From an uncultured Planctomycetota bacterium (GTDB lineage Bacteria > Planctomycetota > Planctomycetia > Gemmatales > Gemmataceae): 64,000 bases of DNA. The stretch spans positions 768,001 through 832,000 of the forward strand of contig CAWKHF010000006.1 of the NCBI GenBank assembly GCA_963849325.1. Reading direction: 5' to 3'. This document shows, piece after piece, positions 48,912-53,206 of this stretch; the stretch's first letter is position 1; each line of letters begins with the position of its first letter. Under the pieces are notes generated by a model that was given only the letters and a program-made list of their open reading frames with translations, ran no database searches and was not told the DNA's origin. Position numbers and translations under genes: made by a program.

Positions 48912-49241
48912 ATGAGCTTGTGGGCCGTTTGGGGGTGGCTTCCCCCTTTGTTGAACGTCGTGCTGCTGATAATCGGCGTGTTTCTGATCCTGCTCGTGCT
49001 GATCCAGAAGGGCAAGGGCGGCGGTTTGGCTGGCGCCTTCGGCGGCTCCGGCGGCTCCAGCGCCTTCGGTTCCCGAGCCGGCGACACCTTCACGCGCATC
49101 ACCATCTACGTCGCGGCCGTGTGGATCTTACTCATCATGATCACCATCAAGGTCGTGCAGCCGACCACTCCTCTGCAACCGGATGCCGGCCAGGTGCAGC
49201 CGGTCTCTCCGAACCAACCGCCCGGCGAGGAAGAACAGTAA
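48912..49241 (+). CDS. secG: Preprotein translocase subunit SecG
   Basis: LVLIQKGKGGGLAGAFGG...FTRIT. Confidence 0.92.
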   Translation: MSLWAVWGWLPPLLNVVLLIIGVFLILLVLIQKGKGGGLAGAFGGSGGSSAFGSRAGDTFTRITIYVAAVWILLIMITIKVVQPTTPLQPDAGQVQPVSPNQPPGEEEQ

Positions 49242-49310
49242 TCAGGGGTCAGGGATCAGGGGTCAGGGGTCAGAAAAACCGGCAACTTCTCTTCTGACCC
49301 CTGATCCCTG
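49242..49310. repeat. Inverted heptamer repeat (TCAGGGG-like) hairpin
   Basis: TCAGGGG TCAGGGA TCAGGGG TCAGGGG TCAG...CTGACCCCTGATCCCTG. Confidence 0.75.
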
Positions 49311-49326
49311 TTCAGAGGAGGTGCGC

Positions 49327-50217
49327 GTGCTGTGCAGCATGACCGGCTACGGTGAGGCGAATTATCAAAGCGATGCCCTTCATCTGGCCATCGAACTGCG
49401 CGCCGTCAACAACCGCTACCTGAAAGTCAGCCTCCGCGCCGGCGAACCGTATAACCTGCTGGAGCCGGAGTTCGAGAAGGTCATCCGCCGCGTCGTCCGC
49501 CGCGGCACCATCCAGGTACATCTGCGCTGCCAGCGGCAGTTTTCCTCGCAGGACTTCCAGGTCAACGTCGTCGCCCTGCAAAGTTACGTCCGCCAGCTGC
49601 GCGAACAGGCGATCGCGTTGGGTCTGGCCGATCACGGCCAGGTGCTGCTGTCTCAGGTACTCGCCCTGCCCGGCGTCGTGCCCGAACCGGCCACCGCCGC
49701 CTTCCATCTGGAAGAAGAATGGCCGATGATGGAGCGCGTTCTCGACCAGGCGCTGGGACGCTTGCAGGCCATGCGGCAAGAAGAGGGACGGGCGATGGCT
49801 CAGGAGATGTTGCAGATGCGCGACCACATCGGCCGACATCTCGAGCACATCCGTCAGCGCGTGCCGTCCGTCGCCACGCTGTACCGCGATCGTCTTCTCG
49901 ACCGCGTGCGCAACCTGCTCGGCGAACTGGACGTGAAGCTCGATCGTAGTGACCTTATCAAGGAAGTCGCCATCTTCGCCGAGCGCAGCGACATCGCCGA
50001 GGAGGTAGTTCGCCTGGCCAGCCACCTCGATCAGTTTCAGGAGATCGTCAACGAACCGGAGAGCGCCGGCCGCAAACTCGAGTTTTTGACGCAGGAGATG
50101 TTCCGCGAGACCAACACCATCGGCTCCAAGGCCGGCGACGTGGAAATCTCCCGCCACGTGGTCGAAATCAAAGGTACACTCGAAAAGGTCCGCGAACTGG
50201 TGCAAAACATCGAATAA
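49327..50217 (+). CDS. yicC: YicC/YloC family endoribonuclease
   Basis: SMTGYG, VNNRYL, DIAEEVVRL, GRKLEFLTQEMFRETNTIGSK, RELVQNIE. Confidence 0.92.
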   Translation: MLCSMTGYGEANYQSDALHLAIELRAVNNRYLKVSLRAGEPYNLLEPEFEKVIRRVVRRGTIQVHLRCQRQFSSQDFQVNVVALQSYVRQLREQAIALGLADHGQVLLSQVLALPGVVPEPATAAFHLEEEWPMMERVLDQALGRLQAMRQEEGRAMAQEMLQMRDHIGRHLEHIRQRVPSVATLYRDRLLDRVRNLLGELDVKLDRSDLIKEVAIFAERSDIAEEVVRLASHLDQFQEIVNEPESAGRKLEFLTQEMFRETNTIGSKAGDVEISRHVVEIKGTLEKVRELVQNIE

Positions 50218-50894: not shown

Positions 50895-51165
50895 ACTGAA
50901 GGAAGAGGCCATCGTCAACAAGGTGGGTGGCCGTTTCAAGCTGTCGACGCTGATCCAGAAGCGGATGGTGGCGCTGAACACCGGCGCTCGGCCGCTGGTC
51001 GAAGTGCGCGGCGGCGACAAGATGGCCATCGTCATTCAAGAAATCTTGCAGGACAAGATTTATCTGGACACGTCGGGTCAGGTGCAAGCGCGTGGCGTTA
51101 GCGCCAGCGACGCCGCCCGCCGGGCCATGCTCGGCGACATCTCCGCCGACCTCGGCGGCGACTGA
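50884..51165 (+). CDS. rpoZ: RNA polymerase omega subunit
   Basis: [15 protein letters not shown]...EI; position after gmk. Confidence 0.85.
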
Positions 51166-51187
51166 AGCCAGATCGAAGGGGGACGTC

Positions 51188-52639
51188 ATGGCCGAAGCAA
51201 CCGACCGTCCGCGGGGCGCCGCCGGGGCGACCCCCGCCCCGGGGCTGGGGACAACCGCGCCCGAACCGTATCGCCCGTTGTCGCTGCTGGCCCTGGTCGC
51301 CTTCGCGGGGGCGGTCGTCTACGCCCTGATCGTGGCGGCGGGCGCCGTGGTTGCCCTGTTCAATCGGATACCCTGGTTGATGCCGGGCTGGTCCTTTCTC
51401 TTGCCCATCCTCGTTCTGGTCCTTTGCTGGGTGGCCCGCGCACGCATCCGCGGCTCCGAGGGAACGCTGGGCGGCCTGGCCTTCACCGCCTGGGGCGTGC
51501 GCCTGACCGTCGTGGTCGGACTCACCTACGCCGCCTATTACGGCTTCACCTTTTTCGCCGTGAGCTTGCAGGCCAAGGACTGCGCCAACCAGTTCTTCGA
51601 CCAGCTCAAGCAGGGCCACACGGAACGCGCCTTTCTGCTCGGCATGGACGTCGCCGCCAAGGACATTGACGACGCCGACCTGCGCAATACGCTGGAGTTC
51701 CGCTTTAACTCCCCCACCGGCCCCGGCGGCTCCGGCGGCGCCTTCACCACGTTCCGGCAAAGCCCCCTCGTCCGCGCCATCGAGTCCGGCGGCGGCGCCA
51801 CGCGCATCGCGCCGTTGGGTGTCAGCGATTGGAGTTACCAGCAGGGCGGCTACCGCGTCCTCCTCAAGTACGAGGTGTCCACGCCCCTGATGGCCGTCGA
51901 GATGGCGGTGGAGACGTTCGGTCGCGACAGCAAGACCGGCGGCCGGCAATGGCAGGTCATGCTCAACCGAGGCGACACGCGCCTCATCCCCGAGACCATG
52001 AAACTCACCCCGGCGGGGGCGGAGTGGATGCAAAAGGCGATGTTGGCCCAGAATTTTGCTTCCACCTGGCAGGACAAGGTCAATCAACGTCTCTGGACGG
52101 ACGTGTATCTGGATACCCTCAAGCCCTCCCAGCGCGAGCGGTTGCACAAGGGCCGGCAGGTGCTGCGCGTGCTGCCGGCGGTGTCGCTGGCCGGCCTGGC
52201 TCCGCTGGGTCTGTGGGACCAATCCTGTCTCGAACTTCTGGATGGCTCGCGGAAGCTCGCCGAGGGCAAGCTGATCCGCATCGACGACAAAACCTTCTGG
52301 ACCAGCAAGCTCGAGCGCAAGGCTATCCTGGCGAACCTCCAGCAGACCTTTCACCCTCGATCCGACGGCAAGGCCCGCTTCACCCTCCAGCTTCAGAAGA
52401 CGCAGATGCCGCCGTCGCGCACGGCCGGGGATGAGTTGACTTTCCTCCTCGACGCCGTTCTGACGTACCTGGACGAGACCGGATCGCGGCCCAAGTATCT
52501 CGTCCAGGCCCAGGTCGCCGTGACGGCGGAGCAAAACGAGGCCGATCGTTCTCCGTCGGCCTGGCGCATTGAGGCCATCGAGATCAGCAGCGGCCGCACG
52601 CCGCCGGAGCCGCCACAGAAAGGGCGCCTGGGAGGCTGA
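51188..52639 (+). CDS. Hypothetical membrane protein
   Basis: YRPLSLLA followed by three TM segments and a soluble C-terminal domain. Confidence 0.7.
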   Translation: MAEATDRPRGAAGATPAPGLGTTAPEPYRPLSLLALVAFAGAVVYALIVAAGAVVALFNRIPWLMPGWSFLLPILVLVLCWVARARIRGSEGTLGGLAFTAWGVRLTVVVGLTYAAYYGFTFFAVSLQAKDCANQFFDQLKQGHTERAFLLGMDVAAKDIDDADLRNTLEFRFNSPTGPGGSGGAFTTFRQSPLVRAIESGGGATRIAPLGVSDWSYQQGGYRVLLKYEVSTPLMAVEMAVETFGRDSKTGGRQWQVMLNRGDTRLIPETMKLTPAGAEWMQKAMLAQNFASTWQDKVNQRLWTDVYLDTLKPSQRERLHKGRQVLRVLPAVSLAGLAPLGLWDQSCLELLDGSRKLAEGKLIRIDDKTFWTSKLERKAILANLQQTFHPRSDGKARFTLQLQKTQMPPSRTAGDELTFLLDAVLTYLDETGSRPKYLVQAQVAVTAEQNEADRSPSAWRIEAIEISSGRTPPEPPQKGRLGG

Positions 52640-52688
52640 GCAGGAAGAAGGGTCATGCCCCCTCCCTCCGGTGCTTCCCAGCGATAAC

Positions 52689-52716
52689 TTGACGGCGCCA
52701 CCGGCTGCCGTAAACT
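52689..52716 (+). promoter_or_regulatory. Sigma70-type promoter for the tRNA
   Basis: TTGACG-16 nt-TAAACT about 80 nt upstream of the tRNA. Confidence 0.6.
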
Positions 52717-52793
52717 GCTAGTGCCCAGACAAGCGAGTTCCCGTCCGAGCCGGAAACGGAAGCGAAGGAAGACGGACGAAAGAGCGAAACCAC

Positions 52794-52905
52794 GGCCAAG
52801 TGGCGGAATTGGCAGACGCGCTGGACTTCATCATCGTTGCATGATCGGTGCAGCAAAATCCAGTGCCCGCAAGGGCGTGTGGGTTCGAGTCCCACCTTGG
52901 CCACC
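52794..52905 (+). tRNA. tRNA-Leu (most likely CAA) interrupted by a 26-nt insert in the anticodon loop
   Basis: Acceptor GGCCAAG/CTTGGCC+A; D arm TGGCGGAATTGGCAGACGC; anticodon stem CTGGA/TCCAG enclosing 33 nt; long variable arm GCCC-GCAA-GGGC; T arm GTGGG-TTCGAGT-CCCAC. Confidence 0.9.
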
Positions 52906-53206
52906 TTAACTTCTTTACTAGTAAGTACTTGTGATGACAGCGGATGACTAACTTCCCGCGAGAGAGAGGGTTGCGTCAACTGCTGTCCTCCGCAGTCCGT
53001 CGAGGCTGCCCCGAGCGTGCAGCCCCAGGCGATAGTCGCCGGTGGGCGTCTCCAGCAGGCCGCTCCGCGCTTGCGGTAGCAGACGCGGCACCAGCAGCCG
53101 GCCATCCCGGAGAGCCGCCTGCGGTTCGCGGTCCGGAGCCAGCAGCATGTCAACTAGGCCCGAGGCAGCGAGAGACTCGACATCGAGTAAGAGTCTGTCC
53201 CGGAAG

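Follow-up and report, generated by a model that had tools for sequence, protein, structure and literature searches.

A 26-nt insert in the anticodon loop of a Gemmataceae tRNA-Leu(CAA) gene, a candidate bacterial mini-intron

The interrupted tRNA-Leu gene

The 64,000-nt stretch of DNA analysed here (the window; positions 768,001 to 832,000 of contig CAWKHF010000006.1, assembly GCA_963849325.1) comes from an uncultured Planctomycetota bacterium of the Gemmataceae and contains a tRNA-Leu gene whose anticodon loop is interrupted by 26 nucleotides. The Rfam tRNA family RF00005 (cut-off 29 bits) matches 52794-52903 on the forward strand with 48.9 bits and is the sole Rfam family above threshold in the window; model positions 1-71 are all matched, and the alignment leaves out 29 bases within the anticodon loop. 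ARAGORN misses the gene at its default settings, and with introns allowed it reports a tRNA-Leu(CAA) of 86 nt plus a 26-nt intron. As encoded, the loop is 33 nt long (52826-58) against a norm of seven nucleotides, and it reads CU-CAA-AA only once 52828-52853 are removed. A first-pass annotation, made from the letters alone, had described a tRNA-Leu gene with a 33-nt anticodon loop, and both programs agree with it.

The gene is of class II, with acceptor stem GGCCAAG/CTTGGCC, a 3-bp D stem, anticodon stem CTGGA/TCCAG, a long variable arm and a T arm. The 5' exon (52794-52827, forward strand), recognised by Rfam and ARAGORN, contains the acceptor strand, the 3-bp D arm, the 5' strand of the anticodon stem, C32 and U33. 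It is followed by the 26-nt intervening sequence (52828-52853, forward strand), the mini-intron candidate, which is delimited at U33/C34 by alignment to uninterrupted orthologues. Within the insert there is a hairpin (52830-52845, forward strand; stem ATCAT/ATGAT, 52830-34 with 52841-45) with a 6-nt loop in the window variant, and a 3' tail, CGGTGCAG (52846-52853, forward strand), that can pair with exon C27-U33. The 3' exon (52854-52903, forward strand) supplies the anticodon CAA (52854-56), A37, A38, the 3' strand of the anticodon stem, the variable arm, the T arm, the acceptor strand and A73. The discriminator A at 52903 is followed by CC (52904-05) and then by T, and the full CCA is not encoded.

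Position and distribution of the insert

We compared the locus across a genus-level set of 11 Gemmataceae genomes (G000-G010), of which G000 (84.69% complete) is the genome containing the window. BLAST of the tRNA region was run against 60 relatives and G000 itself, and nine genus sequences were then aligned. The exons match, base for base, those of the uninterrupted tRNA-Leu(CAA) genes in G002, G003, G004 and G008, and the exon halves abut as CT-CAA-AA in these four, in G006 (where ARAGORN calls the uninterrupted gene Leu(CAA)) and in other genera. Since the insert-less orthologues all read CT-CAA-AA, the insert is 52828-52853 exactly, between U33 and C34, and this register gives a product with anticodon CAA rather than UAA or UCA. 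The orthologue alignment thus agrees with the earlier proposal that removal of 52828-52853 restores a Leu CAA loop, and the alternative registers kept open beside it, giving anticodons UAA or UCA, are not needed.

A 26-nt insert is present at the same site in five of the 11 genomes (G000, G001, G005, G007 and G009), the insert-less genomes being G002, G003, G004, G006 and G008; in G010 (64% complete) the tRNA-Leu(CAA) gene was not found. A search of 267 genomes of the order for a pattern of the tRNA plus a 10-40-nt insert gave matches in six, five of which are the genus carriers; the sixth, with an 11-nt 'insert' in G243, lies at a locus that is not a tRNA and was set aside as a chance match. 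A longer pattern matched 10 metagenome contigs and three metagenome-assembled genome (MAG) records in public collections, with titles naming Planctomycetota or Gemmataceae and all with inserts of 26 nt; the three GTDB MAG records duplicate variants of three carrier genomes. Genomes, metagenomes and MAGs together give 10 distinct insert variants, with differing flanks and all 26 nt long. The first-pass annotation had proposed a BLAST comparison with Planctomycetota genomes, and such relatives do have the insert at this site, with four other genus genomes as carriers and the 10 variants overall. Because it is found in four other species genomes, 10 metagenome contigs, three MAG records and three RNA-library runs, the insert is not an assembly artefact. 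In a DNA run, X1, the contig starts at 52858, so the insert is not covered.

The insert is single-copy, with one copy in G000 at up to five mismatches and one exact copy of the motif in each of G001, G005, G007 and G009; a mobile palindromic or miniature element (of MITE or REP type), which needs several copies per genome, was rejected for this reason. The motif is absent from 400 other genomes sampled across the phylum, and neither the insert-bearing gene pattern nor the commonest insert motif was found in viral contigs. No near relative of the interrupted gene was found in the carriers, which gave 3-mismatch matches only, about as many as a reversed control pattern. G000 has no uninterrupted canonical Leu-CAA gene, a point that the first-pass annotation had left to a tRNA finder.

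Conservation and descent

The flanks of the gene are randomised among the carriers, with a mean pairwise identity of 0.28 over the 30 nt upstream and 0.35 over the 30 nt downstream, compared to 0.98 in the exons (inflated for the metagenome and MAG rows, whose search pattern fixes 25 exon bases) and 0.85 in the insert. Within the insert the mean identity is 1.0 for the first two bases, 0.94 for the hairpin stem, 0.80 for the tail and 0.59 for the hairpin loop; 14 of the 26 positions are invariant among the 10 variants, including G21, G23 and C24 of the tail. Only three of 84 exon columns vary, all of them in loops (one D-loop position in the 5' exon, two variable-arm loop positions in the 3' exon), and every exon stem is 100% paired in the 10 lineages. 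The five BLAST-found carrier genomes are free of any pattern constraint on exon bases, and in these CU, CAA and AA are invariant while the hairpin loop varies in the same genomes. The syntenic upstream neighbour gene of the carriers has 64-74% DNA identity and 38-57% protein identity. The relaxed exon constraint of a tRNA pseudogene is not seen (0.98 in the exons versus 0.28-0.35 in the flanks), and we are confident that the insert is real and under selection. That its own sequence is constrained fits a signal needed for its removal.

In a tree of the neighbour protein (a single gene, nine genomes, midpoint rooting and no outgroup) the carriers are not united in one group, and branches with good support require at least two changes between presence and absence. 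The groups are the carriers G000 and G009, the carrier G007, the insert-less G004 and G008, and the insert-less G003 with the carriers G005 and G001; the insert-less G002 is outermost by midpoint rooting. G000 and G009 share a C at insert position 13, and G007 shares exon variants with G004 and G008. These shared derived states of insert and exons follow the tree, which speaks for vertical descent. The simplest history would be one gain with two base-exact losses, the alternative being repeated exact gains; under either history base-exact presence and absence is intron-like behaviour.

Structure of the insert

The only robust element of the insert is a 5-6-bp hairpin with a variable tetraloop. 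Its ATCAT/ATGAT stem was recognised in the first-pass annotation, and 8 of the 10 variants have a sixth pair (C or U with G) that closes the tetraloop; 95% of cells are paired, four of the six pairs are invariant, and there is one C-G to U-G change. The stem may be read as sequence as much as shape, because no pair changes on both sides.

An alternative fold is possible, in which the last seven bases of the insert (20-26) pair with C27-U33 of the exon; an irregular hairpin with as many as 13 bp then takes the place of the anticodon stem. For the isolated arm this extended hairpin has the minimum energy in 7 of 10 variants, the others being those of G000, G009 and the lineage L078. The anticodon stem is displaced by shuffled inserts in 92-134 of 500 trials, and for those seven variants the exon-strand pairs are equalled in 22-56 of 500, such that the extended hairpin is a possible structure with predicted pairing weakly above that of shuffles.

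Comparison with group I introns

In the textbook account, bacteria have tRNA introns that are self-splicing group I ribozymes, and those spliced by proteins are a feature of archaea and eukaryotes. The insert had been read in the first-pass annotation as the P1 element and terminal G of a group I intron with the catalytic core deleted. The core (P3-P9, with the guanosine site in P7) is lacking in an insert of only 26 nt, and neither RF00028 nor another ribozyme family gives a match at E<=10 in 52700-53000; an antisense Rfam match to an archaeal C/D RNA (14.2 bits, E=0.42) was dismissed as weak. The statement that the insert ends in G is true of the window and of 9 of the 10 variants, and is not general, the last base being A in L078, whose exons are intact. 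Similarly, the insert GGT can pair with exon ACT to give a U.G pair at the cut in the window, and the base opposite U33 is G in seven variants, A in two and C in one, and U in an RNA-library contig; U33 itself, universal in tRNAs, is uninformative. Exon ACU can pair with insert positions 20-22 and position 1 with 19, with 94% of cells paired in the extended helix. With no core, no RF00028 match, and neither the U.G pair nor the terminal (omega) G invariant, the reading as a core-deleted relative is weak; the insert does not belong to the group I introns, and a core-deleted group I origin, although conceivable, is not supported by anything tested.

The group I introns of bacterial anticodon loops include the classes Leu.3Ug, fMet.2Ug, Arg.5Ug and Ile2.5Ug plus 17 further classes (Williams 2020, bioRxiv 10.1101/2020.01.27.920355). 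The insert resembles these in lying in a bacterial chromosomal tRNA gene, in interrupting it directly after a U at the loop position used by fMet.2Ug, in its patchy but base-exact presence and absence, and in its coexistence with group I introns in the Leu(UAA) and Asn genes of G000. It differs in being 26 nt long rather than about 200 nt or more, in having no P3-P9 core or covariance model (CM) match, and in its variable U.G pair and omega G, and it would not be expected to self-splice by the known mechanism. The same survey was limited to introns of 50 bp or more with a CM hit, and so could not have found a 26-nt insert.

The first-pass annotation had proposed a search for stand-alone group I cores with RF00028. 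Two tRNA genes of G000, tRNA-Leu(UAA) and tRNA-Asn, contain genuine group I introns. The RF00028 search (cut-off used, 50 bits) missed known intron copies in G008, G009 and G010, and taken alone its negatives carry little weight. In the carrier G005 (91% complete) the Leu(UAA) and Asn genes lack introns, and this search gave no match. The Leu(UAA) intron is carried by four of five insert carriers versus two of five non-carriers, and there is no association. Two candidates for guides acting in trans lie in coding frames of common codons and were judged coincidence: 18 nt at C10:534246-534263 are identical to the exon-intron junction, and 15 nt at C7:146624-146638 to the beginning of the 3' exon. 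There is nothing specific in favour of a model in which the insert works like a group I intron in trans.

The tRNA-Leu(UAA) gene of G000 (C2:959701-960004, reverse strand; locus L002/L047) contains a 218-nt group I intron at CUU|...G|AAAA that scores 35.1 bits with RF00028, under the cut-off used. The intron is present in seven of the 11 genus genomes, in two with an extra insertion of about 500 nt, and exact intron-less alleles are found in G002-G005. The tRNA-Asn(GUU) gene (C3:92897-93633, reverse strand; locus L001) has an intron of about 660 nt (RF00028, 56.6 bits) with a LAGLIDADG-like open reading frame (ORF). It is present only in G000, and the exons abut in each of the eight further genus genomes with a detected gene (the search gave no match in G001 and G003 and no exon match in G010), a distribution that suggests a recent homing event.

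Comparison with protein-spliced introns

A bulge-helix-bulge (BHB) at 33/34 would need insert positions 2-5 (CAUC) to pair with A35-A38, and only one of the four pairs is possible. None of the predicted folds of the arm shows a BHB (two 3-nt bulges and a 4-bp helix) or the relaxed hBH motif, and the insert is not a BHB intron of the archaeal and eukaryotic kind. It shares with introns removed by EndA/TSEN and RtcB-archease its shortness, the lack of a ribozyme, a hairpin, its location in the anticodon loop, and a genome that encodes the RtcB-archease pair, which Desai et al. (2015, PMC4604427) call a 'tRNA splicing operon'. Unlike these it has no BHB or hBH motif at 33/34, a bacterial host with no EndA homologue found (see below), and a 33/34 rather than the canonical 37/38 position.

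An rtcB gene, the presence of which the first-pass annotation had marked as worth a search, is indeed in the genome. In G000 the genes for RtcB (C10:46269-47539) and archease (C10:47709-48113) are adjacent and on the same strand, and each of the two is found in 10 of the 11 genus genomes. Among 14 control genomes archease gave matches in Thermus, Thermotoga and four archaea only; its presence means that the genus has the multiple-turnover form of the ligase. The operon as a whole (C10:46269-48113, reverse strand; locus L091) is also seen in G009 (C378) and G002 (C3). RtcB of G000 is read in three frames and the nearby FtsK in two, which suggests indel errors of the long-read assembly. In G009 and G002 the match to the RtcB model is split, positions 1-50 and 46/47-426 lying about 1.5 kb apart within one long open frame, and this looks like an intein. 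A 499-aa ORF upstream of archease was rejected as an operon partner, as codon-position GC identifies the ORF on the opposite strand as the real gene.

The closest mechanistic analogy, and one of mechanism only, is the XBP1 mRNA intron, which is 26 nt long, is cut by the metal-independent RNase IRE1 and is sealed by RtcB (PMC5435141). The length is the same, and the 3' junction of the insert, CAG|CAA, resembles the IRE1 sites CAGCAG and CTGCAA given there; XBP1 is a eukaryotic mRNA with twin 7-nt stem-loops in that account, and the 5' junction of the insert, ACU|UCA, does not fit. Short 'enigmatic' introns have been reported in tRNA genes of Lak megaphages (Devoto et al. 2019, PMC6784885), and they are, like the insert here, short conserved tRNA-gene inserts outside archaea and eukaryotes with no Rfam family and no known removal route. 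Those are phage-borne, whereas the Gemmataceae insert is chromosomal, in a syntenic housekeeping position, deeply inherited, and accompanied by exact insert-less alleles. In the literature searched, which did not cover the class table of Williams (2020), we found no report of a short intron, other than of group I, in a tRNA gene of a bacterial chromosome.

RNA evidence and leucine decoding

The insert-bearing gene of relatives is present with its flanks in contigs of three RNA-library runs (X15, X16 and X17), of which X16 and X17 match the lineage L069 and X15 holds a further variant. These contigs are a hint of transcription.

In 904 long ORFs of G000, 12.7% of the 65,302 leucine codons are UUG. 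A class-I-shaped tRNA of 74 nt that has the anticodon CAA is present in a conserved tRNA array of carriers and non-carriers alike; it was not found in the carrier G005 nor in G004 and G008, and it does not track the insert. The interrupted gene is the sole canonical (class II) tRNA-Leu(CAA) gene, and it may not be strictly essential.

A possible route of removal, and alternatives

We think it somewhat more probable than not that the insert is removed from the RNA. The best reading, to which we give slightly less than an even chance, is that it is a genuine mini-intron cut out by a putative RNase and sealed by RtcB; removal by some nuclease together with RtcB is in itself a tentative claim. The transcript would be cut after U33 and after the last insert base by a putative protein endoribonuclease recognising the sequence-conserved hairpin and its flanks, cleavage would leave 2',3'-cyclic phosphate and 5'-OH ends, and the archease-RtcB ligase pair encoded in the genus would rejoin the exons to give a normal CU-CAA-AA loop reading UUG. 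These bacteria probably remove the insert by a route that has yet to be described. The first-pass annotation had offered splicing in trans, by a separate ribozyme or by a nuclease with an RtcB-type ligase; the second of these is the reading kept here, and the first is unsupported. More doubtful, although possible, is the larger claim that this is a third kind of tRNA intron, bacterial, 26 nt long, with neither a ribozyme core nor a BHB, and processed by a dedicated, sequence-specific endoribonuclease and archease-RtcB.

Several observations weigh against removal by a nuclease and RtcB. No joined U33-C34 form was found in the RNA-library contigs, these being assembled contigs only; the exons are identical in insert-less relatives, such that a joined form could not be traced to a carrier; and the contigs carry flanks, DNA carry-over is possible, and mature tRNAs rarely assemble. 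On contigs alone, with possible carry-over and identical exons, splicing is thus neither shown nor refuted. No match to EndA (PF01974) was found in the incomplete G000 genome, the control matching in four archaea; a search for the KEN/RNase L domain gave no match in G000 and is uninformative, as its control matched in no genome. RtcB was not found in the carrier G007 (78% complete), and RtcB and archease are equally present in genomes that lack the insert, so they show a capacity rather than a link. No compensatory covariation is seen in any insert helix. All of the carriers have a tRNA-Leu(UAA) gene (intron-split in four), whose product could read UUG, so the interrupted gene may be dispensable. 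The inflation of exon conservation by the search pattern, given above, belongs here too.

The main rival, which we consider unlikely, is that the RNA is never spliced and is a non-decoding, tRNA-shaped molecule kept for another role; it could donate leucine to a non-ribosomal transferase, act as a regulator, or divert an anticodon nuclease as a decoy, and leucyl-tRNA synthetase does not read the anticodon. The RNA-library contigs, which show unspliced forms only, fit this, as does exon conservation, which suits any role needing a tRNA shape, and UUG decoding may not need the gene where tRNA-Leu(UAA) (all carriers) and the array CAA tRNA (most of them) are present. However, CAA, A37 and A38 are unpaired in the cloverleaf and yet invariant while the hairpin loop varies freely, and the sister insert-less alleles are ordinary tRNA-Leu(CAA) genes, so that the two or more exact switches would mean repeated changes of function. 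Nothing in the gene neighbourhood of the tRNA suggests a tRNA-dependent transferase. A neutral relic, in which an inactivating insertion in a dispensable tRNA gene decays slowly, is strongly disfavoured. It would be consistent with UUG being covered by tRNA-Leu(UAA), with the lack of covariation, and with the loss in L078 of several otherwise conserved tail bases; it is at odds with ten lineages that keep all exon stems intact and vary at three of 84 columns beside randomised flanks and a neighbour protein at 38-57% identity, and with insert changes that are confined to the loop and a few tail positions. The dead relic allowed for in the first-pass annotation is thus rejected by conservation, that of the exons against random flanks and that of the insert stem (0.94).

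Bacteria excise intervening sequences from 23S rRNA without ligation, and the irregular hairpin of up to 13 bp that the insert can form with the exon strand raises the prospect of an excision of RNase III type that leaves two base-paired tRNA halves. We regard this as highly improbable, as the helix is short for RNase III, the junctions are not placed like a staggered RNase III cut when read on the structure, the extended hairpin exceeds shuffles only weakly and is bettered by another fold in 3 of 10 variants, and a tRNA nicked between U33 and the wobble base should no longer decode. A group I intron reduced to P1 and a terminal G, and spliced in trans by a core encoded elsewhere, is improbable too. 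The 5' exon ending in U, the terminal G of 9 of 10 variants, the ability of exon ACU and insert position 1 to pair with insert 19-22, and the two genuine group I introns of G000 are in keeping with it, as is the site after U33, which is that of class fMet.2Ug (Williams 2020, bioRxiv 10.1101/2020.01.27.920355). Against it are the missing core and RF00028 match (E<=10), the G, A and C found opposite U33 in 7, 2 and 1 of the 10 variants and the U of an RNA-library contig, the A at omega in L078 with its intact exons, and the carrier G005, which has no detectable group I intron in a CM search that misses copies in G008, G009 and G010. The guide of the Leu(UAA) intron, to judge by its sequence, would pair with this exon one base out of register. 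We know of no natural trans-acting group I core.

The locus is a bacterial chromosomal tRNA gene with a short, ribozyme-free insert preserved by selection across deep divergence. Since default tRNA finders miss it, genomes of the group are annotated as lacking a canonical tRNA-Leu(CAA). If the insert is spliced, bacteria have an undescribed pathway of RNA cutting and joining, and the long-standing question of the role of bacterial RtcB, here with archease, gains a concrete substrate; were it a third kind of intron, it would be the first housekeeping splicing substrate of bacterial RtcB, and maturation of a UUG-reading tRNA would be a step open to regulation by the cell. If it is not spliced, a charged-looking, non-decoding tRNA is kept for another purpose, which would also be new.

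Upstream region and other tRNA genes

A sigma-70-like promoter candidate, TTGACG-16-TAAACT (52689-52716, forward strand), lies 78 nt upstream of the tRNA and is recognised by a 9/12 consensus match only; it is the site given in the first-pass annotation and the single one in 52400-53200, versus 0.1 expected in shuffles. TTGACG is likewise found upstream of the gene in the insert-less G004 and G008. Directly upstream of the tRNA is a 515-aa ORF (51092-52639, forward strand) with no Pfam or NCBIfam match, which keeps its synteny with the tRNA in each of the nine genus genomes examined and evolves fast (38-57% identity). A YicC-like endoribonuclease gene (49183-50217, forward strand; Pfam YicC-like_N and YicC-like_C) is located 2.6 kb upstream of the interrupted tRNA; it belongs to a widespread family, has no established link to the insert, and was set aside.

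Another tRNA-like gene of G000 has an enlarged anticodon loop (C1:476146-476235, forward strand; locus L082; RF00005, 54.2 bits), of 27 nt and containing CAU. As it was not found in 40 relatives and no register restores U33, it was not taken as evidence of a general mechanism. G000 also has three dense tRNA arrays of 7 to 13 or more genes (C1:515629-516193, C4:433741-435175 and C12:838476-839555), and among their products are class-I-shaped tRNAs of 74 nt whose anticodons, CAA and UAA, are those of leucine. Several genus genomes share the C1 array at 80-94% identity, and it is thus not a recent mobile acquisition. Finally, the gene at C6:234193-234278 (forward strand; locus L083; RF00005, 53.3 bits) encodes a class-II-shaped tRNA, with a long variable arm and a 3-bp D stem, in which an alanine-type anticodon, AGC, is mismatched with the type of the body.

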